Of a DNA stretch of 64,000 bases, positions 1-52,514 are shown in pieces (the first letter of the stretch is position 1; every line of letters starts with the position of its first letter). Under the pieces are notes generated by a model that worked only from the letters and a program-made list of their open reading frames with translations, was not told the origin of the DNA and did no database searches. Source of the DNA: a virus; the IMG/VR virus record IMGVR_UViG_3300005293_000039, positions 1 through 64,000 of that record, one strand, 5' to 3'. The position numbers and the translations under genes were made by a program.

Positions 1-792
1 TTGGACGTTTGGAAATCCATCAGGGAGATACTGTTGAAGATCTTTTTTGATGAAGTAACCCGCGCCCGTTTCCTTGAGAGCTTGAAGGACTTGCTCAGTA
101 AACTGTCGCCAGTTTGTTAGTTGAGTTAGCTTGCTGTAGTTGATGCGCCCGATTTTGAACAGGTCAACATACTTATGCGTCTTACGGATGATCTCTATTG
201 TTGCCTCTGTGTTGAAAACGGGCTCAAGGCTGGCCCATGTGAAGATCCCGGCATCGTGAAATTCTCGAAGTGTCGAAATACGATCTGATGGAACGGCGGC
301 GTGCGGTTCCCATCGCAAAGACTCGGCTTCGTCCAAAGATGTTAACGATGACGCGAAAGCATCCATAGCGGGCCGGAACAAATCCAGGTCACGCAATGCC
401 CGCTGGCCCCCCTTCGTGAGCGTGCAAAAACTCAAGCCGTAGAATTTCAGCACTTCCAGCGTCTCACGCGTTAACCCTGTATCGCCGGGATGATACGGAT
501 CGGTTGTGAACGAAAGCATCACCTGTTCTTTGCAACCGATGGCACAATACTTAACCGCATCCTTTTCGAGTCTTGCTAAGAAGTCTTTCCGCGGCGTCGC
601 CCCTTTGTTGAAATCCGCACGTGGCATCTGAATCACGGAGGGCACGTAGCAGTACACGCATCCGTTACCGCAACCGCGATAGGGATTCGTAGCCAACCGC
701 GCATACTCTCCCGCTTGGCCAGAAGGCGCGTAAATCATCTGGCAGCCCCTGATTGAATAGCCATCGGGATTTAGCGTTACTTTTCTATTCAT
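1..792 (-). CDS. Radical SAM protein (spore photoproduct lyase-like family), 3' end runs off window
   Basis: Not in ORF track; the two ends, translated manually from ATG at 792, read MNRKVTLNPDGYSIRGCQMIYAPSGQAGEYARLATNPYRGCGNGCVYCYVP... with a CxxxCxxC motif and ...FKIGRINYS...IKKDLQQYLPDGFPNVQ at base 1. Confidence 0.85.
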   Translation of the reverse strand, partial: MNRKVTLNPDGYSIRGCQMIYAPSGQAGEYARLATNPYRGCGNGCVYCYVPSVIQMPRADFNKGATPRKDFLARLEKDAVKYCAIGCKEQVMLSFTTDPYHPGDTGLTRETLEVLKFYGLSFCTLTKGGQRALRDLDLFRPAMDAFASSLTSLDEAESLRWEPHAAVPSDRISTLREFHDAGIFTWASLEPVFNTEATIEIIRKTHKYVDLFKIGRINYSKLTQLTNWRQFTEQVLQALKETGAGYFIKKDLQQYLPDGFPNVQ

Positions 793-845
793 GCTTTCTG
801 CTCCGTTGGATTTCCCGAAAATTTGAATGGTAAAATACTAGACTT

Positions 846-1964
846 GTGATCACGACTTTTCGCTATCGAATCTATCCCACAAAACGTTAGGAGCAGGTCC
901 TTAACGGACAACTTGCGCTCTGTTGCGAACTTTACAATGCCGCTATTCAGGAAAGGCGCGATGCTTGGCGGCTGGAACGCAAGCCGATCTCTTGGTTCGA
1001 TCAGAATTTGCAGTTGACAGCAATTAAGCAGATCCGCGAAGACCTCGCTGCCTTGAATTCGAAGGCCTTGGAAAACGTTTTGAAGCGCGTTCAGTTGGCC
1101 TTTAACGGCTTCTTTAGAAGGATTAAGACAGGAGACAAGCCGGGGTATCCGCGATTTCGATCTGCACGTCGATACGACAGCATGACATTTCGAGAAATCG
1201 GCAATGCGCTGGCCGGAAACAGATTGAGGCTGTCCAAGATCGGTAAGGTTAGAATTAAGCTGCACCGCCCACTTGCCGGGACCGTAAAAACTCTGACGGT
1301 CAAACGAGAGGCGAATCGTTGGTTTGCTATTTTTGCGGTTGAGTGTGAATCCGCGCCTTTGCCCTTCAGTCCTAACGCCATAGGTATTGATGTCGGACTG
1401 AGTAAGTTCGTCTCTCTCAGCAACGGAACGGCAATTGAGAATCCACGCTGGTTTCGAACCGCACAAGGCAAGCTTAGACACTTGCAGCGGCGCGTTGCGC
1501 GACGTAAGAAAGGATCGAATCGCAGGCGCAAAGCCGTCCTGTTGCTTCAACGATTCCATAATCACATTCGCGACCAGCGCCGCGACTTTCATCACAAAGA
1601 ATCGCGCAAGATCGTCAATCAGAACGGCCTGATTGCAGTCGAAGATTTGAACGTGAAAGGCCTCGCGGCGGGAATGCTCGCTAAGTCCGTCAACGACGCT
1701 GGGTGGTCCAACTTTCTTTTTATGCTCGCGTACAAGGCTGAGAGCGCCGGGCGCGTACTCGTGAAAGTTGACCCTCGCGGTACTTCGCAGACATGCTTGT
1801 GCGGCGCAGGGGTTCGCAAGACGCTCGCTCAACGCTGGCATCTGTGTCTCTCGTGCGGGTTGTCTGCGGATCGCGATCATGTCAGTGCTCAAATAATTCT
1901 TTCCAAGGCTCGCGGTGAGCCATCAGGCGCTAACGTAGCGGATTTAATCGCACGCGTTGCCTGA
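846..1964 (+). pseudogene. tnpB: IS200/IS605-family RNA-guided nuclease TnpB with in-frame amber stop at codon 15
   Basis: GTG at 846 gives MITTFRYRIYPTKR*EQVLNGQLALCCELYNAAIQERRDAW (TAG 888-890), same frame as ORF 1008..1964; RuvC motifs GIDVG, VEDL, DRD and C-terminal Zn ribbon present; no tnpA nearby. Confidence 0.9.
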
Positions 1965-1984: not shown

Positions 1985-2168
1985 TGCCGCCCGTTGGATT
2001 TGTTGCTCTCTTCCAGTGAATGTCTCCACATTCAGAACACTTACATCTGCTTCCGCCATAGGCGTTCGTCCCCGGCATCTCGCTCAACGCCTCGCGCATC
2101 TGCCGCCGCTCCGAAAATGAACTCGGTACGATTAGATCTACTTTCTGATCTTCTGTCTCGGTGTTCAT
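1944..2168 (-). CDS. Small Cys-containing phage protein, C-terminus altered by the tnpB cassette
   Basis: ATGA overlap with MTase stop; CKCSECG motif. Confidence 0.6.
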   Translation of the reverse strand: MNTETEDQKVDLIVPSSFSERRQMREALSEMPGTNAYGGSRCKCSECGDIHWKRATNPTGGIDKQQSFSGNACD

Positions 2169-3166
2169 GCGGTTGCGAATAGCGCGTCTGGTGGTGTCTC
2201 TTTTTCTGCCCGTTCAAGATTTGCCACGGCCTGTTTGTAGTAACTCTCTTTCAACTCTATACCGATGAAGCGTCGACCTTTTTGAATAGACACATAGCCT
2301 TCACTACCGATTCCCGCGAACGGACTCAGTACCGTATCGTTCGGGTTGGTCCATAGCTCAACCGCTCTGTCGATGACGTCTAACTGTAAGGGGCAGATGT
2401 GGCGCTCGTCTCGTTGCTCTCGCGCGGCTTGGACGTTGAGCGTCCGGGTTTGTCGAATATCCATCCACACGGGCGAGGCGTAGCGCCGCCACACTTGATG
2501 TGAATAAACAGGATCGTCCGCCGTTGTTGCGGTGTAACTCTCAATATCGACGCTTCTTACTTTTGGCTTTCCCTTACGCGCCTTTGGTTCATCGTCGCCA
2601 ATGAACTCTGTAAATCCATCTGGTCTTGAAATCGGTTCTGGGTTGATACCAGGCTTGCGCATCGTCACGAGGTAGTCAGGTAGCCCCTGCCGACACATCG
2701 CGCTATCCTTCGTAACTTGCTTGTGCATCAAGCCCAGCGCCTTTGTTCGTGTCGCCTCAATCAACGGGTCTTTCCAGATGACTACCTTTGAGTGATAAAT
2801 GAATCCCGCCGATTCAAAGATTTCTCGCAGTTGCGCAGGGAAGTCTTTCAGCCCTATGAATCCATCGCGCTCTTTCATGGCCGGAATATCCATGCAGTGA
2901 AATGAAACCAACCGCCCCGGCATGATTACTCGGTACAGCTCGCTAACGATGAACTTGAAGTGCTCGTAAAACTCTCGATCGGTTCGCGCATTTCCAAGAT
3001 CACGCTCGCTTGCTGAATAGGTATAGAGCGAGGCGAACGGCGGCGAGAAAATAGAGTAGTGAATGGAGTCGGACGGAATACCGTGTAGCGCCTCGCAGGA
3101 GTCTCCAAGATACATGGCCCAGCCTTCTCCGAATCTCTGATCGATTATGTTCATGCGTTTATCCAT
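2165..3166 (-). CDS. DNA methyltransferase (N4-C/N6-A, beta class)
   Basis: SPPF catalytic motif, HICPLQLD, VLSPFAGIGSEG SAM-binding motif, GIELKESY; real start may be 3154. Confidence 0.92.
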   Translation of the reverse strand: MDKRMNIIDQRFGEGWAMYLGDSCEALHGIPSDSIHYSIFSPPFASLYTYSASERDLGNARTDREFYEHFKFIVSELYRVIMPGRLVSFHCMDIPAMKERDGFIGLKDFPAQLREIFESAGFIYHSKVVIWKDPLIEATRTKALGLMHKQVTKDSAMCRQGLPDYLVTMRKPGINPEPISRPDGFTEFIGDDEPKARKGKPKVRSVDIESYTATTADDPVYSHQVWRRYASPVWMDIRQTRTLNVQAAREQRDERHICPLQLDVIDRAVELWTNPNDTVLSPFAGIGSEGYVSIQKGRRFIGIELKESYYKQAVANLERAEKETPPDALFATA

Positions 3167-4530
3167 TGCGGCAAGGCCATTGGCCTCGCTGCTTCGTATG
3201 CGTTTCCGGTTCTCACCGTGCCGTGTACCGCCTCAACGTTGTAGACGCTCATGTGTTTGACCATTTCGCTCGCCATTTTCATTGCGTCACGTTCTTTGCG
3301 TTCGATGTTCTTTACCACTGCACCTTCTTGCTCGCTCGTGATGATGTATCCGTTGACGGAACGTTTTTGACCGAATCGCCAGCACCTCCGGATCGACTGA
3401 TAAAACTTCTCGTATGAATCGCTCAGCCCGACGTAGCCCACATTCGGACAGTGCTGCCAATTCATTCCGAACCCACAAATGGACGGTTTAGAAATCAACG
3501 CGCGAAACTGCCCGTCACTAAATCCAAGCATCCGGGATTCTTTATCCTCATCTGAGTTGGACCCGGCCACTTGCACCGCATCCGGAATCATCTTTTCAAG
3601 CAGATCGCCCTCCGCGTTCAGGTCGCACCAGATCAACCACGGCTCCGTGGATCCGTTCACAAGTTCCGCGCACGCTTCAACGCGTTCACTTAGACTTGCT
3701 CTACGTGCTAATCGTCTTTCTTCGAGTGTCTGCGCTTCGACCGGGAATAAAAATCCTTCCATCGGCTTTGCGCCCTTTACTACAACGTGATGCAGATTAA
3801 GCGGTGGTAATTCAAAGCCTGCGTCTGAATAGCCGAGATCCGAAGGCTTGCGAATCATCACCGCCCAGCCGCAGATCCACTTCCAGTATTCTTCCTCTGC
3901 GTGGCCCTTTAGTCTCCACTTCGCAGTGTCCCCTCCGTCGTGCACAAAGAATGTTGAAAGCATTTCTGTTCGTGTAAGCACGCCAAAGAATTCAGAGTGG
4001 TTACCTAACTCCATAAAATCATTCGGTGCGGGCGTGGCGGTCGCGCACAGCTTCATGGGCGTGTTAGCGAATCGCTCAATGAGCATGTTTCGGGTCGCGC
4101 CGGTAAATGATTTCAGGATGGAACTTTCATCAAGCACAATCCCGGCGAAGCGCGACGGGTCGAAGTGCTGGAGCTTCTCGTAGTTCGTGACGAACACGCC
4201 GTGCCTCTTCACGCCCATATCCGACGCGGCGACTGCTACCGGGATACCGAACTTCCTGCCTTCACGCTCCGTCTGTTTTGAGACCGCAAGCGGAGCAAGA
4301 ATCAGCACCGGCTTATTGAACTTCGCGGTTACTGCTTCGGCCCACTGCAACTGCATCGGAGTTTTACCGAGACCGCAATCAGCGAAGATCGCAGAGCGTC
4401 CGCGTTCAATGGACCATCGCGTTATATCGCGCTGGAATTCAAACAACTGCGCAGACAAAGATTCAGGGGCGAAGCCGCTCGCGGGATGAACGATCTGCTT
4501 ACTCTGGAGAAATTCACCGTAGTGTTTCAC
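3151..4530 (-). CDS. SNF2-like superfamily 2 helicase
   Basis: DCGLGKT Walker A, LDESS Walker B, TATPAPND, QSIRRCWRFGQ motif VI. Confidence 0.92.
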   Translation of the reverse strand: MKHYGEFLQSKQIVHPASGFAPESLSAQLFEFQRDITRWSIERGRSAIFADCGLGKTPMQLQWAEAVTAKFNKPVLILAPLAVSKQTEREGRKFGIPVAVAASDMGVKRHGVFVTNYEKLQHFDPSRFAGIVLDESSILKSFTGATRNMLIERFANTPMKLCATATPAPNDFMELGNHSEFFGVLTRTEMLSTFFVHDGGDTAKWRLKGHAEEEYWKWICGWAVMIRKPSDLGYSDAGFELPPLNLHHVVVKGAKPMEGFLFPVEAQTLEERRLARRASLSERVEACAELVNGSTEPWLIWCDLNAEGDLLEKMIPDAVQVAGSNSDEDKESRMLGFSDGQFRALISKPSICGFGMNWQHCPNVGYVGLSDSYEKFYQSIRRCWRFGQKRSVNGYIITSEQEGAVVKNIERKERDAMKMASEMVKHMSVYNVEAVHGTVRTGNAYEAARPMALPQWINA

Positions 4531-5122: not shown

Positions 5123-5328
5123 CGTTTTATCCAGGGATTGACTAGCGTTATGTATTGTCCGCAGTGCTTCGGTAATCCCCTTCGCAGCCACTTTGCGATC
5201 TCGCTCGTCGAGCAGTTTCGTTCTTTCCCGCAAACCAAGCATTTGCCCGTAGTGCCGTCAGGGAAAGCGTGACTCGCAAGGTTGGCGTAGAGCGGACTCT
5301 TCTCAGTAATTTTGCTTAGTTTTTCCAT
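5119..5328 (-). CDS. Small zinc-binding protein
   Basis: CLVCG...KHCG; overlaps neighbours. Confidence 0.55.
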   Translation of the reverse strand: MEKLSKITEKSPLYANLASHAFPDGTTGKCLVCGKERNCSTSEIAKWLRRGLPKHCGQYITLVNPWIKR

Positions 5329-5554
5329 TTCTCAGTGCCGTCTCGAAGCGATCTAACATCCAATCAACTCGTTTGGGATTGTTGCCCTCACGCATAAACC
5401 TGATTAGAACTTCTTCCCACAATTCCAACTCGCCCGCGCCATTCGGAAGAACAGTTACAGCAATGTCGCGCCGTTGAATGTGGTTAGGGGTTAAATGAAC
5501 GATGTCCCGATACTTCTTTACTGCTGGATTGTCTAAGTTTGGATCTCTACTCAT
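5303..5554 (-). CDS. Small protein resembling the C-terminal (DnaD-like) domain of phage replication initiators
   Basis: AVKKYRDIV...LWEEVLIRFMREGNNPKRVDWMLDRF pattern and position in the early operon; weak, by eye only. Confidence 0.4.
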   Translation of the reverse strand: MSRDPNLDNPAVKKYRDIVHLTPNHIQRRDIAVTVLPNGAGELELWEEVLIRFMREGNNPKRVDWMLDRFETALRNGKTKQNY

Positions 5555-5925
5555 TCGCTTATCGCATTCTCGAATTGGGATTCAATTTCCTGCATTGATA
5601 GCCACGCCTGCCGTGACCTCCAGCGCCGCGCCCTCTTAATCATTTTCCCTCTTGGTTTGATTTGTCGTTTTACGCGCCGCGTCGCCTCTCTCAGCGTTAA
5701 GTCAGGATGATCTTTCTTCATCTGATGGACTTCTTCGTGACAATCAACGCAGAGCAATAGAACGTCATCAAACTCCTCCCTCCCTAACCGTGAATAATCA
5801 ACGTGATGAAGATTCAATCGCCTGCGCGCCCGGCAGAAGGCACAGTGAGGTTTTCGCCATTGAGCCATGTAAGAGGCTTTGAATTCTTTCCAGTGCGTGC
5901 TCTTAAGATAATCTTCGTACTTCAT
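5551..5925 (-). CDS. Small HNH endonuclease
   Basis: YLKSTHW, CAFC, LHHVDY.RLG.E, LCVDCHEEVH. Confidence 0.85.
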   Translation of the reverse strand: MKYEDYLKSTHWKEFKASYMAQWRKPHCAFCRARRRLNLHHVDYSRLGREEFDDVLLLCVDCHEEVHQMKKDHPDLTLREATRRVKRQIKPRGKMIKRARRWRSRQAWLSMQEIESQFENAISE

Positions 5926-5934
5926 AAACCTTAC

Positions 5935-6402
5935 CGCTTAGGTGGCTCGGTTGACGGACGTAGACCTTCCCTCTAAGGTCTACCGTCTCACCGCCCAGTA
6001 TGGCTTCGGCGTTTCAACGTACAGGTTCCTCTTGCGGATTAGCTGCCTTCTTGAAATGAGCAGCCGGGCCAATTAGCGTGCTGGCAAGAGCGCAGGGGAT
6101 GAACTTGTCAGCCTAAAATGCGACCCCGTTCCCAACGTCGGCTTATTTGTATGTTGGCTTCGTGACAAGTATTCGTCCTTCATATGCTGTAAGCGCTTCC
6201 CTCAACACGGGCACTCGTGAGACAATCTCTGCAATTCAAGCGAGTACCAGAAGGGCTGTAACTGTGAGACTTCGGCGTCAATAGTTACGGCCCTTGCTCT
6301 TTGTGAATTCTGCGCGCCAGAGGTGGCTGGATTCTTTTGTTACCAGCGTCCTTTGGGATTCCACCCCAATGCTCTGCGGACTGAGCTACACCCCTAACGC
6401 GC
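5935..6402. ncRNA. Highly structured non-coding element (RNA or ssDNA), function unknown
   Basis: Stems 5960-5968/5975-5983, 6029-6035/6084-6090, 6103-6110/6163-6170, 6251-6265/6281-6295; no credible ORF. Confidence 0.6.
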
Positions 6403-6555
6403 AAAAGAAAAGCGACTCAAATAAGCCGCGCTCGCGGTTTGGCCCTATTCACCCCTGCAAGCAGATAACAGAGACGAACGTTGCGAAAACGCGACTTATT
6501 GGAATCGCCATCTGCTTGAATCGGGCCGGGGCCAACCGGCATTCTCAAAGAACAA
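6403..6555 (-). promoter_or_regulatory. Attenuator-like leader with competing helices, U-tract and boxA-like site
   Basis: 6490-6508 pairs with 6412-6430 followed by UUUUCUUUU; crossing helix 6510-6527 with 6441-6466; TTGTTCTTTGAGAA at 6555-6542. Confidence 0.55.
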
Positions 6556-6681
6556 CCAACCAATAACACAACTCGAGAATTTAAGTTTTGCATCGACTCC
6601 GTTTCACACTTCTACTGTGTCCCACCTGTTCTAATCCCCTGCTTGAAAATTCATTACCCTGAGTTCGGTAGGTTTTGAGAT

Positions 6682-7053
6682 CTAGCTTTCCATCTCAGCA
6701 ACTAAAGCGTGATCGTCTGTGCCTTGAGATTCGTCACCCGGCAGCGCCTGTAACGGAATTGCGCCGATGACAAACTGCACCTCTTCTTCGGTTAGATATG
6801 GCCGCTGGAGAGCAGCAACCGCACCTTCCAAAGTTTTAACCGCATCTGCTACGGCGGCATCTCGCGTCTCTCCCTCGCCTATGTGGATTCCGTCGAAGTC
6901 TGAAACTTCTGTGTTGAGCCACACTTCAAAGAATCCGTCACGTTTTGCTAGGTGTAGAATTCGACCATCAAGAGAGACTCGCTCATCGTGATCATGCGGC
7001 CCACTCGCGGCATTTACATCCGGTGCATGGTGAAATCCGGTATTGCCTCTCAT
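6682..7053 (-). CDS. Hypothetical phage protein
   Basis: ATG at 7053 after AGGAG RBS; in frame with ORF 6682..7167. Confidence 0.6.
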   Translation of the reverse strand: MRGNTGFHHAPDVNAASGPHDHDERVSLDGRILHLAKRDGFFEVWLNTEVSDFDGIHIGEGETRDAAVADAVKTLEGAVAALQRPYLTEEEVQFVIGAIPLQALPGDESQGTDDHALVAEMES

Positions 7054-7054
7054 C

Positions 7055-7504
7055 TCAATCTCCTGCGCTTGCTGCGTGGGCTGCATTCGTAACATCTTCC
7101 AGCGGCGTCTCTGAACTCGGAATGGATGACGCGTTCTCTGACTTCTGTTTTGATTTGCGCGGCGCACGCGCTACAGACTTTGGGGGTTCAAAGTCATGCG
7201 AGTTGATGTACGTTCGATCATGATCTGACGCATCGGCGACTTGCCCGCAGATGCCGCACTTCGCTGCCTTGTCTGGAGTAGGTTCTTTCTGCGCCGGCGG
7301 GCTTGCAGATGGTTTCTCAGCCTTCTTGCGAGGCGTAGGTGTCAGTTCTCTTGTTAGCGCGTCGTGCGCCTGTTGTGCAGCCTCAGCCACGGCTTTAGCA
7401 GTGTTCAACTGCGATTGGGCCAATCGTTCGCGCATAAGCGCCGCCTCTAACCGCATCGCGGAGTCATTCAGAATTCGATCCGCTTTAGTGTTTCGTCGTG
7501 CCAC
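7055..7504 (-). CDS. Hypothetical protein, coiled coil plus CxxC-H-H zinc site
   Basis: GTG at 7504 with GAGG RBS directly after upstream stop; CGICG...H...H. Confidence 0.6.
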   Translation of the reverse strand: MARRNTKADRILNDSAMRLEAALMRERLAQSQLNTAKAVAEAAQQAHDALTRELTPTPRKKAEKPSASPPAQKEPTPDKAAKCGICGQVADASDHDRTYINSHDFEPPKSVARAPRKSKQKSENASSIPSSETPLEDVTNAAHAASAGD

Positions 7505-7960: not shown

Positions 7961-8707
7961 TTAAGCTATAATCGGGACCGCCTCAATCTTCCCGGTTAGG
8001 TATTCTTTGATGAACGCAATTGCGTCCAGCTTCCACTTGCCGCCGTCCGCTTCGAAAAGCGCAACGGTGGGCAGCCCTCCCTCGCGGCCCTGCTTCATGC
8101 GTAGGACAAATGGAGAAAGTGGCTGTGTAACTTCGCGGAACGTGCGGAATGGCGCAAGAAAGACCGGGTTAGGGACTGACACGTCTTCGACGCGAGCAAT
8201 GCCCGACTTTGCGGTGACGGTTTGCGTTACGCCGTCGTCGCCGGTCTGTCGAACGTTCTCTTCCTTGATGTTGCCGACGATCTTGAGCACGGCCGCTCTG
8301 CCGTCGAAGTCTTCAAAGAGCGAAAGCAGTTTGATTACAAAAGATTCACAATCGTAAAACTCACCAAAACGGAAATCGCTCTTTGATAGAACGGCATCGG
8401 CGGTTGATGATGCATAAACGCAGCGTTGCTCTGCGCGTCCGAAGGTTCCAGATAGCACATCGACCTGGCGTTCGTTTACAACATGAACCATAAGACCGAT
8501 CTCGTCTTCCTTAACGCCATCAGCCCCGTTGTTGACGTATTCGACAAGGCCCGTAAGCGTGTTTAGCTTGAGCGTTGCGGGAACCGGTTCTTTTGGCGGT
8601 TCATAAACAGGCCGCGAAACGAACTCCGTATCGCCAACAGTTATCACTTGTGTTAGCTCGGAATCCTTTATGGCCCGGACAGCGGCATCAGGAATTAATT
8701 CAGACAT
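7961..8707 (-). CDS. Conserved phage protein, partner of the 114-aa upstream gene
   Basis: VPNPVFLAPFRTFREVTQPLSPFVLRM...ALFEADGGKWK signature. Confidence 0.75.
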   Translation of the reverse strand: MSELIPDAAVRAIKDSELTQVITVGDTEFVSRPVYEPPKEPVPATLKLNTLTGLVEYVNNGADGVKEDEIGLMVHVVNERQVDVLSGTFGRAEQRCVYASSTADAVLSKSDFRFGEFYDCESFVIKLLSLFEDFDGRAAVLKIVGNIKEENVRQTGDDGVTQTVTAKSGIARVEDVSVPNPVFLAPFRTFREVTQPLSPFVLRMKQGREGGLPTVALFEADGGKWKLDAIAFIKEYLTGKIEAVPIIA

Positions 8708-9044
8708 TCGCGGCCTCCTTTGTCATACCGACAACGTTGTCGTTGAATGTCATCTGCCGCGTATCGCGTTCGGTTGCGACTGCTCTGCCTGCGTGTCGTC
8801 CAATGTAGATCGCCGTACCGACTGCGCGGCTCGGCGCGAGTTTTGATTTGACTTCGATCATTGTGTTTGCGAATGAGCGATCCTCATCCGGCTTGACGGT
8901 AACGGTGAGCGTTACAGACCGCGCCGCCGTGGGTTTAGTGTTCGGATCGAGAATGTTTTCCAACACTCGATTCAGTTCGTCCTCAAACTTCTCAATCGCT
9001 GCTCCTTGGCCCAGCGTATCGAGACTTACAAATTGTTCGCTCAT
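8700..9044 (-). CDS. Conserved phage protein (often labelled replication terminator protein)
   Basis: GAAIEKFEDELNRVLENILDPNT...RSVTLTVTVKP...VKSKLAP. Confidence 0.7.
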   Translation of the reverse strand: MSEQFVSLDTLGQGAAIEKFEDELNRVLENILDPNTKPTAARSVTLTVTVKPDEDRSFANTMIEVKSKLAPSRAVGTAIYIGRHAGRAVATERDTRQMTFNDNVVGMTKEAANV

Positions 9045-9216
9045 TCCTCTCCCTTCGCTTCAAAGCGGTAAAGTGTCTTACGATCAACAACCATTCATTC
9101 CTAAGTGCTTTGTCTTCATTTCGAATCTGGTAAGGGCGGCTTTGCCAGTTAAGACCAACAGATACCTCCGACATTTTTTAAGTGCATCGGGTGGGCCTGT
9201 TAGCCGCCCTAATTCG

Positions 9217-10005
9217 TTCCTGCGGGCCGGATTCCCACCCGGCTCCCGATCTACTATCTGGTCGGCATCGTTTTATCCACGGTTTGTGATGTCCGTTGCA
9301 TACTGCTGCCCCTACCAGCGGGCCATGCCGCCTCTTACCCCGGCGCTGGTACGCCGCCGCAGGAAATTCACATTAGCCTTGAGCCGCCCTCCGCAACGTA
9401 GTGCTTGATCCGATTCAGCGGCACCTTGAACGTCCGGCCTTTCGCCTTCGGATGAGACTAGGCGACTCAAGATTGGCTGCGCGGGCCGATGGGATTCACA
9501 CCCATGTTGATGCGGCTTCTGACCGGCTTATTGATTCCGTTGTAGCGGCCCCGGCCTGACGTACCCGCGCAAACTTTCAAAAATCAATCGCTGTCTCTCC
9601 AGCGTGTCACACAACTTGTCAAGGCCAGTCTCGGTTTCCAGAACGGGATCTCACCGCTCGCCCGACTTGGTGATCTTGCTCATGAGGCAGTGTGTCGCCC
9701 GACCCGCTTGCGTTGCGGTAGCACCTCTGCGACGCCGCGCTATCATTAGCACCGATGTTTCGTTGTCATCGGCAACGCCAGAACTAACGCCTCACTGGAA
9801 GCCCGCAGTCACGACTGGAACAGTCGCCAGCATGTTGCCCGTTGGTCTGCGGCACCATGATTCGCCGCGCAACGCGACGAAACGCAAAACTTTTCAAACA
9901 ACATCTCCAGTGGGTTTTCTCTCGCGATCCTCACACCGCAGACTCTGTTCTCATAGAGTGCTGACCTATGCTTTTCTGAGTCCATAAGAGAAGCCTCACC
10001 GGAGA
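9217..10005 (-). ncRNA. Tandem array of about five structured small RNAs, two with tRNA-like acceptor stem and T-arm
   Basis: Closing stems 9217/9365, 9378/9471, 9478/9571, 9904/10005 and a multibranch unit at about 9588-9885; AU-rich linkers. Confidence 0.6.
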
Positions 10006-10011
10006 ATCTTT

Positions 10012-17123: not shown

Positions 17124-17627
17124 ATGGCGCGACTAAGAGGCGAACAATTTACCGAGCAGAGATTTTGGAGCAAGGTGCGCAGGACGAACGCGTGCTGGGA
17201 GTGGGAGGGACATCGAAATCCCGCTGGCTACGGCGTCTTTTCAGTGGGCCAGAAGTTAATTCTCGCCCACAGGTTTCGATGGGAATTATCCAATGCCGCA
17301 ATCGCAAGCGAACAACGCATCCTGCATAAATGTGACAACCCGGCTTGTGTTCGGATCGACCATTTATTTCTCGGAACGCAGGCGGATAACGTTGCTGACA
17401 TGTCCGCCAAAGGACGAGACAGAAAGGCCGCAGGGGAGAGCCACGGCCGCTCTAAGTTAACAGACGCTCAAGTCCAACAGATCCGCGACTTATTAAACAA
17501 AGGAGATTTAAATGGCGTGGAAATAGGCCAAATCTTTGGCGTCAGCAAGTCCGTGGTGTCACTGGTACGCAACGGAAAGCGCGGCGGTCGTCCAAGCATT
17601 ATCGAAACAGGCAAGGTACTTGATTGA
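17124..17627 (+). CDS. Free-standing HNH homing endonuclease with C-terminal HTH
   Basis: RFWSKV, CWEW, GYG, AHR, HKCDNPACVRIDHLFLGTQADNVADM, SKLT. Confidence 0.92.
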   Translation: MARLRGEQFTEQRFWSKVRRTNACWEWEGHRNPAGYGVFSVGQKLILAHRFRWELSNAAIASEQRILHKCDNPACVRIDHLFLGTQADNVADMSAKGRDRKAAGESHGRSKLTDAQVQQIRDLLNKGDLNGVEIGQIFGVSKSVVSLVRNGKRGGRPSIIETGKVLD

Positions 17628-24279: not shown

Positions 24280-24780
24280 ATGAGAGAAATTCTACTAACT
24301 AATAACAAAATCGCCCTTGTTGACGATGGGGATTTTGAGACTTTGTCTCGGTTCAAGTGGACGGCGTATAAAAAGCGATCTACATGGTACGCGCATCGCA
24401 CGGTTCACGCCTCTGAGCGTGAGTTGCTAGGTGGTCGCAAGTCAATTTCAATGCATCGATTCTTACTGAGCCATCTTCCGACTAAGGGAATAGAAATCGA
24501 CCACAAGAATCGCAACGGACTGGATAACCAACGAGAAAATCTGCGCGTTGCCACGCGGAGTCTGAACCAAATGAATTGCGGCCCATACAAAGGCAACAAG
24601 AGCGGCTATAAGGGCGTTTCATGGAGACAAAAGGGTCGCGTTATCGCGCAGATCTACATCAACACGCGGCGCGTTTACTTAGGACGGTTCGATACGCCAG
24701 AGCAGGCCGCACGCGCATACGACGCTAAAGCAAAAGAGCTATTCGGCGAGTTCGCTTATCTAAACTTTCCAGAAGGGTAA
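24280..24780 (+). CDS. HNH-AP2 homing endonuclease
   Basis: ALVDD.DF, MHRFL, IDHKNRNGLDNQRENLR, SGYKGVS...YLGRFDTPEQAARAYD AP2 domain. Confidence 0.93.
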   Translation: MREILLTNNKIALVDDGDFETLSRFKWTAYKKRSTWYAHRTVHASERELLGGRKSISMHRFLLSHLPTKGIEIDHKNRNGLDNQRENLRVATRSLNQMNCGPYKGNKSGYKGVSWRQKGRVIAQIYINTRRVYLGRFDTPEQAARAYDAKAKELFGEFAYLNFPEG

Positions 24781-49712: not shown

Positions 49713-52514
49713 TCAATAACTCTGACTGGTATAGCTTTCCGAGTCTTCTTCTGAATAGCGATCTTTGCCGATTGGTTTTTGGTAAAACGCGAGGTTTGCT
49801 CCGTCTGCTAGGTCCGGTGAATATCCCAGCCGCTTTTTCATTTTCTCTTTTTCTTCCACGATCTTATAACCCGGCGACTTGTACTTTGGCGTGGACCACT
49901 CGCGCTCCAACTTTAAGCGAATATCCTGCCGTAGACGTGAGTAGTCTAAACGCTTTTCTTGTGCCCGTTTGCGGATATCAAACCACAATTCTGAGCGCAC
50001 GTTTTTATATTGCTCTCTGTCGTTGGCGGGTTCTGTCGAGTTGACTCCGATAGCGTTATATCCAGCGGTCTTTAGTACAAAGTACGGCCCCATACCCGGG
50101 CCTCCTGTAGTGTCGATCTTGATCGGCACCTTCTTAGCGACTTTGATTTGCTCTTCGGTGTCCGTAATTGCGGTCCACTGCCGACCTTTCCACTGCCTGA
50201 CGGCTGCGAGCGCATCTTCCATGCATGCCTGCGCCACTTCCATCCCGTCCATCTTGCGGATCTCGCGACCCGAGATCAGGCAAGGCCCACGGCGCACAAA
50301 GATCGTGGTCCTGTCGTCACCAAACCTCGCGACGTCTGAGCCTAACTCTGGCATATCACTCTCGATCGGCTCTGATCGCGGCTGAGACTTTAGCCATGAC
50401 CTCGGGATAACCTGCTGATCGGCTTGAGTGGGAAACTCACCCAGCACACGTCCTTGGAAGTAAGCAGTAGGCATGTAGAATTGAGTTTTACTCAGATCGG
50501 CCGGCCGACCCTCAAGGGCATTCTTAATCTCTGCCAGTGAGACGAACTCAAAAGCATCCTCAACTAGCTTTTCGGTCAATTCGCATTCCTTCTCGAGCAT
50601 TTCAGACAGCCAAAGAAGTCGAACCGCATCAGGGAATGGGGGCTTCTCGCATCTCAACTCCGATGCAATGTTCGGATGTTCAAGCGCAGAGATTGAAAGA
50701 GTGTTATAGAGAATTGATTCTGATGCGAGCCCGAACTCTGTTGCCTCATCAGTCGGATTGCCGATCGCGAAGACTCGGTTATCCGGGTGAGTCATCAAAC
50801 CGCCCACCGCATCCCAAATGTATTTAGGAACACCAACGCCCTCTTCGATCACGATCAGAATAGGCGCCGAGTGTTCCCCTTGAAAACCTTCGCCCCGCTC
50901 TGCGTTGAGAGCTCGAATGTAATGCTCGCCCTCTTTCAGTTTGTCGAGATCGCGGATTATCCCCGTATCAAGAATGATGCCCGGCAGTCCCTTTGCCCTT
51001 CGGAGTGTCTTTAACTGTTTGAATGTGAGACCGAGCGCCTGTGGCCAGGTAGGCGCCGTAATGTATCCGATGTGTTTATCCCAACAGTCATACCACCATG
51101 AGGTTGCGACTGCTGCGGTGAATGTGTTGTGCTCCCAGAACGTAGTTAAGAATGTATGATGCTCGGGAACTTCAACTGCTACCGTGGTCTCAATACCCGC
51201 ATACTCAATACTTTTTACCTTTTCGAGAATCGTGCCTGACGGTGCGTAGCGAGTGCGCCACACCCGTCTCGAGCGACCAGAGAGTTTCTTTTCCGCGATA
51301 AACCGGACCTTCGCTATTGCGGCGGTCTTACCGAATATGCCGACCTGATCGCAAAATCGTAGAACGCTGTCCGCTGAGTGTAGTGACACATCCCACGCGT
51401 GAACCTCTGGCCTGTATCGCAGCCTACCCGCGATCCCAAAACGCAGTAATAGTTCCTGTACATCACGTACAAGATTCTCTGATACTGAACAGAACCCTAT
51501 TTCAATAGCTCCGGTGTTGCTTGCGGACGCCCATCCGTCCGTCGCATACAAGCGCGATAGAAATAAACGAATCTTGTCGAGGCTTTGCACAAAGACTTGG
51601 GGCGGAACTCTCTTATCGCGCGAATGCTTGCCCATTAACCCGTGGCGGCGAAGCAGATCAGCGACTTCGTTTAGGCGGTGACTCGTAACACCGGATGGTG
51701 ATCTGCTTTTGGACGCACGGACACGTGTGCCAACCACGCGGTATTGATACCGATCTTCACCACATCGCTTTAGAGCTGCTCCGCGCTCAGCGCATAAAGA
51801 CTTGAACTCCGTGAGTTGTTGATTGTCTTGCTGGGTGAACGACACGCCTCTCGCTGTGTATCCACCGTCGCCAATCAGGTACGCGAGTAGTTTGAGATCT
51901 GAGTCCGACAGCGGTGTTTCTCCGCTAAGCTCAAAGCCGCTCAAGGTTGACGCCACCGCAACCACGTCGCCGGGCCTGATGTTGCTGAGCGAGGTCCATC
52001 TCAAGGGCTTGATTTCGGGATGCTTCCCGGCAACGAATGTGGCATTAGCCGACATAAACGGGTGTTCGGCATTCCGTATAACACGCCGACCAGACTCAGT
52101 TGTCAGCGCATAAACAGGCTCTATCGCATTGATTACCGCGTGGGCGTTAACCGCTTTGGGGATACCGTTAACTAGCGTGAGAAGGCGAAACCTCCGACCA
52201 ATTAAGTCGCCCGCCCGTCGCCTGGAGCCATCGGCAAGCGGAATAAACTCCGATGCCGCGACGCACTTTCCGATCGCATGGCTCGCTTGTGCGAGGGTGT
52301 AGCGATTCTCAAGAATGCTTTGCAGCATCGCATCTTGATCGGGCGTAAGAGTTACGCCGAGGATCTCTTTAGCGTAAGCCTGTGGGCGGGATTGATACTT
52401 TTCTAAGGATTCGGCGGGCCGCGCTCGTGAGGGTATACCAGCTCTAACCGCTGCCTGTTCAGCGATCGCTATAGCATGGGCTTCTTGTTCGGCTGATGAA
52501 TACTGAACACTCAC
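49713..52514 (-). CDS. terL: Terminase large subunit containing an intein
   Basis: Walker A SHAIGK/T split by the intein, IEE Walker B, IGNP, DVARFGDD and SPDLAD nuclease motifs. Confidence 0.93.
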   Translation of the reverse strand: MSVQYSSAEQEAHAIAIAEQAAVRAGIPSRARPAESLEKYQSRPQAYAKEILGVTLTPDQDAMLQSILENRYTLAQASHAIGKCVAASEFIPLADGSRRRAGDLIGRRFRLLTLVNGIPKAVNAHAVINAIEPVYALTTESGRRVIRNAEHPFMSANATFVAGKHPEIKPLRWTSLSNIRPGDVVAVASTLSGFELSGETPLSDSDLKLLAYLIGDGGYTARGVSFTQQDNQQLTEFKSLCAERGAALKRCGEDRYQYRVVGTRVRASKSRSPSGVTSHRLNEVADLLRRHGLMGKHSRDKRVPPQVFVQSLDKIRLFLSRLYATDGWASASNTGAIEIGFCSVSENLVRDVQELLLRFGIAGRLRYRPEVHAWDVSLHSADSVLRFCDQVGIFGKTAAIAKVRFIAEKKLSGRSRRVWRTRYAPSGTILEKVKSIEYAGIETTVAVEVPEHHTFLTTFWEHNTFTAAVATSWWYDCWDKHIGYITAPTWPQALGLTFKQLKTLRRAKGLPGIILDTGIIRDLDKLKEGEHYIRALNAERGEGFQGEHSAPILIVIEEGVGVPKYIWDAVGGLMTHPDNRVFAIGNPTDEATEFGLASESILYNTLSISALEHPNIASELRCEKPPFPDAVRLLWLSEMLEKECELTEKLVEDAFEFVSLAEIKNALEGRPADLSKTQFYMPTAYFQGRVLGEFPTQADQQVIPRSWLKSQPRSEPIESDMPELGSDVARFGDDRTTIFVRRGPCLISGREIRKMDGMEVAQACMEDALAAVRQWKGRQWTAITDTEEQIKVAKKVPIKIDTTGGPGMGPYFVLKTAGYNAIGVNSTEPANDREQYKNVRSELWFDIRKRAQEKRLDYSRLRQDIRLKLEREWSTPKYKSPGYKIVEEKEKMKKRLGYSPDLADGANLAFYQKPIGKDRYSEEDSESYTSQSY
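51126..52265 (-). mobile_element. Intein (380 aa) with LAGLIDADG homing endonuclease
   Basis: Starts GK|CVAASE, ends WEHN|TF; NAEHPF block B; LAYLIGDG and LSRLYATDG motifs. Confidence 0.93.

Follow-up and report, generated by a model that had tools for sequence, protein, structure and literature searches.

A conserved, portable and heavily folded non-coding element in the early leftward operon of a temperate soil phage

The window analysed here is the first 64 kb of IMGVR_UViG_3300005293_000039, a complete IMG/VR virus record of 74,540 bp with a 65-bp terminal repeat. The sequence is that of a phage found in soil metagenomes, and a tyrosine integrase gene at 72212-73414 of the record identifies it as temperate. 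A long minus-strand transcription unit starts at about 14.2 kb and continues through position 1 of the window, and within it lies the subject of this work, a non-coding element of approximately 628 nucleotides (nt) at 5929-6556 on the minus strand. The element falls within the longest stretch free of open reading frames (ORFs) in the 74.5-kb genome (5926-6681), and its neighbours in the operon are an ORF for 161 amino acids (p161, 6682-7167) and, on the minus strand, a gene for a 124-residue HNH endonuclease (5551-5925), which is followed on the same strand by the ORF of an 83-residue protein (p83, 5303-5554). This slot, upstream of the SNF2 helicase gene, is hypervariable. A preliminary description of the sequence had placed a structured element at 5926-6560, abutting the ATG of an HNH gene that is coupled to the 83-residue ORF. 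That layout holds, with 3 nt between the end of the element at 5929 and the ATG at 5925 and a 4-nt overlap between the two ORFs, and so does the presence of a structured element: stops occur in all six frames of 5926-6681, no ORF-free stretch in the genome is longer, and the whole gap folds better than its shuffles (z of -3.4 on the minus strand and -5.0 on the plus strand). The interpretation given to the element was only partly supported, as described below.

Using an 18-mer from an invariant block of the element, we retrieved two further lineages from Joint Genome Institute metagenomes. The first, L169, is a contig of a sister phage from the same family and matches at 92% nucleotide identity over 5921-6589, with the 3' domain of the element (5929-6295, approximately 370 nt) likewise at 92%. 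The second, the L163 group, consists of five identical copies (L163, L165, L166, L167 and L172) that match at 71% identity over 5932-6261; this group lacks the 5' domain (6296-6556), which is confined to the lineage of the window, L169 and the contigs of soil run X3, and the 3' domain is common to all three lineages. Soil contigs from four other runs, aligned to the window, also carry the element. Among them, the two overlapping X3 contigs cover 5929-6139 and 6118-6553 at about 92% and 96% identity, pass into another gene to the left of 5929, and join position 6553 straight to 7136. In soil run X5 the depth over 5969-6277 is approximately tenfold in excess.

The surroundings of the element differ from one lineage to another. 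In L169 the 161-residue ORF is missing, a 58-residue ORF replaces the HNH gene, p83 is 43% identical and 262 nt separate the tail of a 179-residue ORF (p179) from the element; the X3 contigs likewise show the 58-residue ORF, and not the HNH gene, beside it. In the L163 group the element comes after an integrase gene, a 300-residue ORF and an HTH_17 excisionase-like gene, and before unrelated ORFs; no neighbouring protein is shared with the window. A strong C6/G6 hairpin at L163 positions 5405-5440, after the element and before the next ORF, may mark the 3' end of the RNA in that lineage. Two neighbours in the window are therefore to be regarded as lineage-specific insertions: the HNH gene, since in L169 and L163 the RNA has no such gene beside it, and the stretch 6554-7135 (minus strand), which holds most of the 161-residue ORF and is absent from L169 and the X3 contig. 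From these contexts the element is bounded at about 5929 and 6556, independently of both ORFs, and the homology limit of 6553-6556 in the other samples agrees with the right-hand limit of about 6560 proposed earlier. The 179- and 161-residue ORFs overlap by 113 nt (7055-7167), and the N-terminus of p161 matches relatives only within this overlap, so that its real start is probably further downstream.

With respect to coding capacity, the six frames of 5926-6681 show no translated similarity to any compared locus, and indels of 1-2 nt between lineages exclude that the stretch is coding. A small plus-strand ORF at 6147-6284 was considered and rejected on the grounds that its lineage indels are not multiples of three; six of its 12 variants fall in one codon phase, which is not significant. 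An origin of the element as a host-derived phage attachment site (attP) or as a fragment of transfer-messenger RNA (tmRNA) or RNase P was also rejected, since Rfam gave no match and two invariant 19-20-mers had none in 185,579 species genomes. It could be argued that the stretch is non-functional debris, that is, a decayed tRNA cluster or dead genes, given a tRNA-like unit that has lost its canonical D and T loops and a slot that is hypervariable. However, the element is conserved at 92% and 71% while the flanking proteins are only 43-50% identical (p83 and p179 of L169) or unrelated, and compensatory changes are present in its helices, which makes this explanation very improbable. We conclude that the gene-free stretch is a real, conserved, portable and heavily folded non-coding element.

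Close phage relatives were found through the SNF2 helicase (72-78% identity) and a phrog_1029 protein; their slot is ORF-dense with different content, and none of the 160 viral-contig loci recovered in this way carries the element by blastn, tblastx or nhmmer. The HNH and p161 proteins led to no relatives in viral contigs, four sequence patterns scanned in viral contigs gave no matches, and two patterns scanned in genome contigs gave none and two chance matches, respectively. A blastn search against GenBank phages and plasmids returned nothing. In Rfam, the gathering mode found nothing on the whole window, and at E-values up to 10 on 841 bases no family other than tRNA was matched, HEARO, GOLLD, ROOL, introns, tmRNA and RNase P included; beyond its tRNA-like part the element is thus covered by no Rfam family.

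The fold of the 3' domain was described by 12 helices obtained from RNAalifold and hand curation. In the alignment used (A3), 97.5% of the 204 cells are paired over 68 pairs. Nine of these 68 pairs are changed on both sides, compared with 3.0 ± 1.4 in shuffled controls, where none of 500 reached nine, and with at most four in slid controls; these compensatory changes support the domain. At the 5' edge of the shared domain stands hairpin Ha (6251-6295), with two compensatory changes (C-G to G-C and U-A to C-G). Ha contains a C·A mismatch on the minus strand, equivalent to a G·U pair on the plus strand, at the same place in all three lineages, with a second one in L169, and has a U-rich tail on the plus strand. 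A block of 28 nt (6195-6222, minus strand) is invariant in the three lineages, with no well-supported variant listed in four soil runs; it supplies helix Hb (6210-6217 with 6241-6248) with its 3' strand and a long-range helix with its 5' strand. The loop word UUCAAG (6050-6055, minus strand) forms a pseudoknot or kissing interaction with CUUGAA at 6235-6240, and in L163 the pair becomes GUUGA/UCAAC, where the closing C-G is exchanged for G-C.

A variable sub-domain (6097-6178, minus strand) is closed by the 8-bp helix D (6171-6178 with 6097-6104), in which L163 differs from the window on both sides of five of the seven pairs counted. The hypervariable hairpin H6 (5957-5988, minus strand) is a perfect inverted repeat whose approximately 12 bp persist in every lineage although most of the letters differ; in L169 it has 12 pairs, two of them G·U on the minus strand. 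The stems named in the preliminary description are all found: the perfect 9-bp stem within H6 (5960-5968/5975-5983), the long stem of Ha, and the helices within 6029-6178, represented by 6029-6035/6084-6090 and by D. The word CUCUUGC is the target of competing alternative pairings.

The 5' domain folds on the minus strand with a minimum free energy (MFE) of -115 kcal/mol and a z of -5.3 against 200 shuffles (folded over 6296-6560). It is closed by the pairing of GUUCUUUG (6546-6553) with CAAAGAGC (6296-6303). This closure joins a boxA-like word to an A-rich linker, and hairpins, one of them terminator-like, and a cloverleaf are enclosed between the two. The boxA-like word GUUCUUUGAGAA (6542-6553, minus strand), which we take to resemble the boxA of rrn operons and lambda, is followed by a hairpin at 6525-6540. 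The terminator-like hairpin with its U run (6402-6429, minus strand) lies just upstream of the tRNA-like unit; sites of this kind are no more numerous in the region than in shuffled sequence.

The cloverleaf itself (6318-6395, minus strand), overlooked in the preliminary description of the element, surfaced with the Rfam tRNA model under laxer filters. It aligns to positions 1-71 of RF00005 with 45.9 bits, above the gathering score of 29 (E 2e-8). Its four stems are intact, it has a G3·U70 pair and the anticodon GGA, and U8 and A9 are present. The D loop AGUCCGCA has no GG, and G18-G19, on which the canonical elbow depends, are therefore missing, while the T loop has 12 nt (UAACAAAAGAAU) in place of seven and no T-psi-C word. 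In both the window and L169, 8 further pairs (6310-6317 with 6396-6403) lengthen the acceptor stem, and no CCA is encoded. In L169 the acceptor pair U6-A67 is changed to C-G, and two changes in the flank improve pairing. ARAGORN called no tRNA at the cloverleaf, nor at the equivalent place in 50 related loci. The broken D and T loops, the lack of CCA, the extended acceptor and the rejection by ARAGORN indicate that this is a tRNA mimic and not a working tRNA.

In the window the element directly precedes an HNH gene. The encoded 124-residue protein displays the HNH finger motif CxxC...HH...CxxCH, read as CAFC...HHVDY...CVDCHEEVH, and matches phrog_8060 at 1e-12 and the HNH family phrog_119 at 7e-7; against Pfam HNH (PF01844) it scores 18.5 bits, under the cut-off of 21.4. 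Its homologues are few and lie on short soil contigs. An HNH-associated guide or scaffold RNA of HEARO or omega-RNA type had been suggested from the layout, and in this genome alone the element does resemble the HEARO/omega RNA of IscB, as a structured RNA upstream of an HNH ORF and co-oriented with it. Nevertheless, RNA and nuclease gene are not inherited together: in L169 and the X3 contigs the element stands beside the 58-residue ORF, in the L163 group beside integrase and excisionase genes, with no HNH gene nearby and no protein shared with the window. In addition, IscB combines a split RuvC with an HNH domain in about 400-500 residues, while the protein here has the HNH motif only, with neither RuvC domain nor bridge helix; HEARO was not matched even at E 10; and this phage encodes three or more further HNH genes that are free-standing. 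We therefore regard a guide function for the HNH protein as the least probable of the explanations weighed here, and the tempting HEARO-like reading is removed. We take the nuclease to be a free-standing endonuclease of the homing type, unrelated to the element, whose gene landed at its border, and the link between the two to be coincidental. The additional free-standing HNH or endonuclease VII-type genes lie at 17124-17627 (plus strand), 24280-24780 (plus strand) and 71637-72212 of the genome (minus strand), making this a phage rich in homing-type endonucleases. A group I intron with a homing endonuclease was also rejected, because the flanks differ in the three lineages and no ORF is split; Rfam intron models gave no match at E up to 10, and some words presumably resemble intron P, Q and S elements.

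The position of the element raises a different possibility, namely that it takes part in the initiation of replication. In agreement with the preliminary description, which spoke of the early operon, no initiator, primase, polymerase or DnaB-type replicative helicase was recognised among the approximately 70 ORFs scanned; the recognisable proteins were limited to an SNF2-type helicase, an exonuclease, a ParB-like protein, a methylase and the integrase. Moreover, in the closest sister phage, L002 (78% helicase identity), the place directly upstream of the SNF2 helicase is occupied by a primosomal protein and a DnaC-like loader, neither of which has a homologue anywhere in the present genome. 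For these reasons we kept as a rival a protein-independent or DnaD-assisted origin, in which a structured transcript or single-stranded DNA would prime or nucleate replication and replace the initiator-plus-loader module; a replicator with no cognate protein would also explain the unrelated contexts of the element, including the integrase-excisionase setting of L163.

The protein p83 bears on the same possibility. It lies beside the element in the window and in L169, was absent from the five sister genomes searched for it, all among six complete ones that lack the element, and has no family by Pfam, PHROGs, NCBIfam or a sequence search of the PDB. Its model, with a predicted local distance difference test (pLDDT) score of 88, finds its best fold matches in the DnaD domains 2zc2_B and 2i5u_A, weakly, at Z 6.6 over 68 aligned residues. 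Small helical proteins commonly reach a Z of this size, and no sequence match to DnaD accompanies it; the earlier view of p83 as similar to the C-terminal part of an initiator finds a weak echo in this fold match but no support in the sequence, and the L163 lineage has the element but no p83.

For the origin itself, positive evidence in the sequence is lacking. The element has no iterons, only two-copy families of 9-14 nt; it has no AT-rich stretch, its minimum G+C over 40 nt being 0.375 where the first percentile of the genome is 0.325; no DnaA box was matched between positions 5 and 8 kb; and no plasmid or GenBank phage is similar to it. The L002 module is not common to the other close relatives, which suggests that the slot is simply hypervariable, and the GC skew turns elsewhere, at about 14 kb and 26 kb, although this signal is confounded by gene orientation. 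Taken together, these results leave an origin at this site unlikely. Three copies of the 10-mer AAC(C/T)GCA(C/T)CT, spaced by 44 and 21 nt, occur within the 161-residue ORF (6773-6847), which is absent from L169 and X3; they could be chance or binding sites.

The reading that we favour, with a probability of about 0.5, is that the element is a self-contained non-coding RNA module, strongly structured and horizontally exchanged, which the phage carries in the variable portion of its early leftward operon. That it occurs in other soil mobile elements without the neighbouring HNH gene points to a self-contained module and not to a guide RNA for this nuclease. Six complete sister phages have no copy of it, and it is thus not essential to this phage group. 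Its core, a multi-helix fold of approximately 370 nt with at least one pseudoknot, probably acts as a sense-strand RNA within the early transcript. To this core, the 5' domain of approximately 260 nt would have been added in the present phage lineage, with the elbow of the cloverleaf destroyed and its acceptor continuing into the long helix. The tRNA mimic may then offer a handle to host enzymes that process tRNAs, or to other proteins that bind them, which could excise the RNA from the polycistronic transcript or stabilise it; the boxA-like word would shield the long untranslated stretch from Rho; and the released RNA might act alone, comparably to other phage RNAs of the large ornate kind.

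As to the strand, the curated helices contain 20-23 G·U cells versus 4-5 A·C cells when read on the minus strand. Substitutions mapped on single-sequence folds leave more pairs intact on this strand (for example, 21 of 53 vs. 15 of 54, and 18 of 68 vs. 9 of 66), the MFE of the whole element is -239 on the minus strand vs. -226 on the plus strand, and it is on the minus strand that the tRNA-like unit and the 5' domain form. The sense strand is accordingly the better supported choice for most of the domain, with odds of about two to one in its favour. The preliminary description had assigned most G-T wobbles to the plus strand, antisense to the operon; this is correct for hairpin Ha, but most of the other helices with covariation carry their G-U pairs on the minus strand. 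Ha may be a plus-strand terminator or contain a deliberate non-canonical pair.

Several points weigh against the module as we describe it. The 3' domain alone folds better on the plus strand (z of -3.4, -3.4 and -1.6, vs. -1.9, -1.8 and -0.5 on the minus strand), alifold scores are equal on both strands, and Ha is perfect only on the plus strand, where its U-rich tail is found in both lineages. The comparison comprises only three distinct sequences, from which the curated structure was itself derived. No RNA run is listed among the sequencing runs that contain the sequence. The parts played by tRNA mimics in processing and by boxA against Rho are carried over from other systems.

Two rival explanations arise from the mixed strand signal. 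In the first, the minus-strand RNA is a leader under antisense control, and a short plus-strand countertranscript ending at 6251-6295 regulates read-through or translation of the early genes downstream, as is known for antisense-controlled leaders in plasmid copy control. Such an arrangement would explain why the G·U of Ha, conserved in position in three lineages, exists only on the plus strand while the remaining helices carry G·U on the minus strand; the plus-strand tail after Ha has 5 U in 8 bases in both lineages, with different letters, in the window and L169 the ribosome-binding site and ATG of the following gene lie immediately against the element, and CUCUUGC has its competing pairings. 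Nonetheless, the downstream genes differ by lineage (HNH, a 58-residue ORF, a 154-residue ORF), a strong hairpin and about 50 nt intervene before the next ORF in L163, the scan found no plus-strand promoter and none is conserved, and 370 nt with a pseudoknot far exceeds the size of known antisense-controlled leaders, so that we hold this explanation to be distinctly unlikely.

The second is an independent RNA gene of approximately 370 nt on the plus strand, antisense to the operon, running from about 5929 to a terminator at 6251-6305, which corresponds to the strand called in the preliminary description. The better plus-strand folding of the 3' domain relative to shuffles in all three lineages is in agreement with it, as are the resemblance of Ha to an intrinsic terminator and the fact that shared homology ends just past the tail of Ha. 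On the other hand, helices Hb, D, H5 and H6 would have A·C mismatches on the plus strand, fewer pairs are retained there by substitution mapping, a TTGACA-like word at 5950-5955 is lost in L163, and the minus strand is clearly the one on which the tRNA-like unit and all of the 5' domain fold, for which reasons a plus-strand gene appears improbable.

Compared with known systems, the module is close in outline to GOLLD and ROOL, large ornate RNAs of hundreds of nt with multiple helices and a pseudoknot, found in prophages and phages beside tRNA-type sequence. Like them, the element is hundreds of nt long, pseudoknotted, phage-borne, associated with tRNA-type sequence and not bound to one protein partner; unlike them, it is smaller, comes from soil phages and has a crippled tRNA mimic built into a closed 5' domain, and neither the gathering mode nor a search at E-values up to 10 matched it to either family. 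tRNA mimics serve as processing handles in the P4 CI RNA, the P1/P7 C4 precursors and mascRNA. The element shares with tRNAs and their mimics a full cloverleaf above the tRNA threshold, placed within a longer phage early transcript, and departs from tRNA in having no G18-G19, no T-psi-C, no free 3' end and no CCA, and in the 8 additional acceptor pairs. With ColE1 RNA II/RNA I and single-strand initiation sites it has in common a long structured untranslated transcript and a possible antisense hairpin terminator, and with a ColE1-type origin its portability with no cognate initiator and its place in a replication-module slot; it differs from such an origin in lacking plasmid similarity and any match to RNAI or countertranscript RNA (ctRNA) above noise.

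Other features of the phage were recorded alongside the element. A second large ORF-free gap in the same operon (9045-10011, minus strand, approximately 967 nt) contains a tRNA-like unit near 9478-9571. Rfam gives no match to this gap, it is not similar to the first one, and its conservation in L169 does not extend beyond 9122. The adjacent 114-residue protein (8700-9044) matches phrog_997 ('replication terminator') and, weakly, HPPK, and a radical SAM protein is encoded at the edge of the window (1-792, minus strand; Pfam 1e-10); these two may form a nucleotide or DNA-modification module, next to the genes for the SNF2 helicase and an N6/N4 methylase. Some sister phages encode helicase and DNA methylase as one fused ORF of 771-807 residues (L004 6001-8316 and L008 5896-8319), whose counterparts in the window are two overlapping ORFs, 3151-4530 and 2165-3166. 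The 367-residue ORF at 789-1892 (minus strand) has no match in Pfam, PHROGs or NCBIfam, and these searches thus lend no support to a TnpB assignment. The large terminase subunit (49713-52514, minus strand) is unusually long at 933 residues, and its PHROG match covers residues 464-917 only, which leaves an N-terminal extension of approximately 460 residues of unassigned nature. A faint lead from the protein atlas points to Acidobacteriota as the host phylum.

Three features make the element worth pursuing: its core is pseudoknotted and shows compensatory changes, a tRNA mimic is built into it, and its borders are sharp and portable. No protein goes with it as it passes between unrelated mobile elements, and it occupies a replication-module slot in a phage with no recognisable initiator. 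Large, intricately folded orphan RNAs are rare and have repeatedly led to new biochemistry such as ribozymes, riboswitches and RNA-only assemblies. It is conceivable, although we consider it doubtful, that the element represents a new class of large structured RNA of soil phages and integrative elements, either an initiator-free RNA replicator or a new ribozyme or other RNA-only machine; on this reading the portable pseudoknotted core of approximately 370 nt, fused here to a tRNA mimic, lies in the slot that holds the primosomal protein and loader in L002. If true, a replicator of this kind would be a phage counterpart of ColE1 RNA II, possibly helped by a mini DnaD-like protein. The element is short enough to be synthesised, probed and imaged, and hence both its role and the way in which the replication of this phage starts are directly testable.

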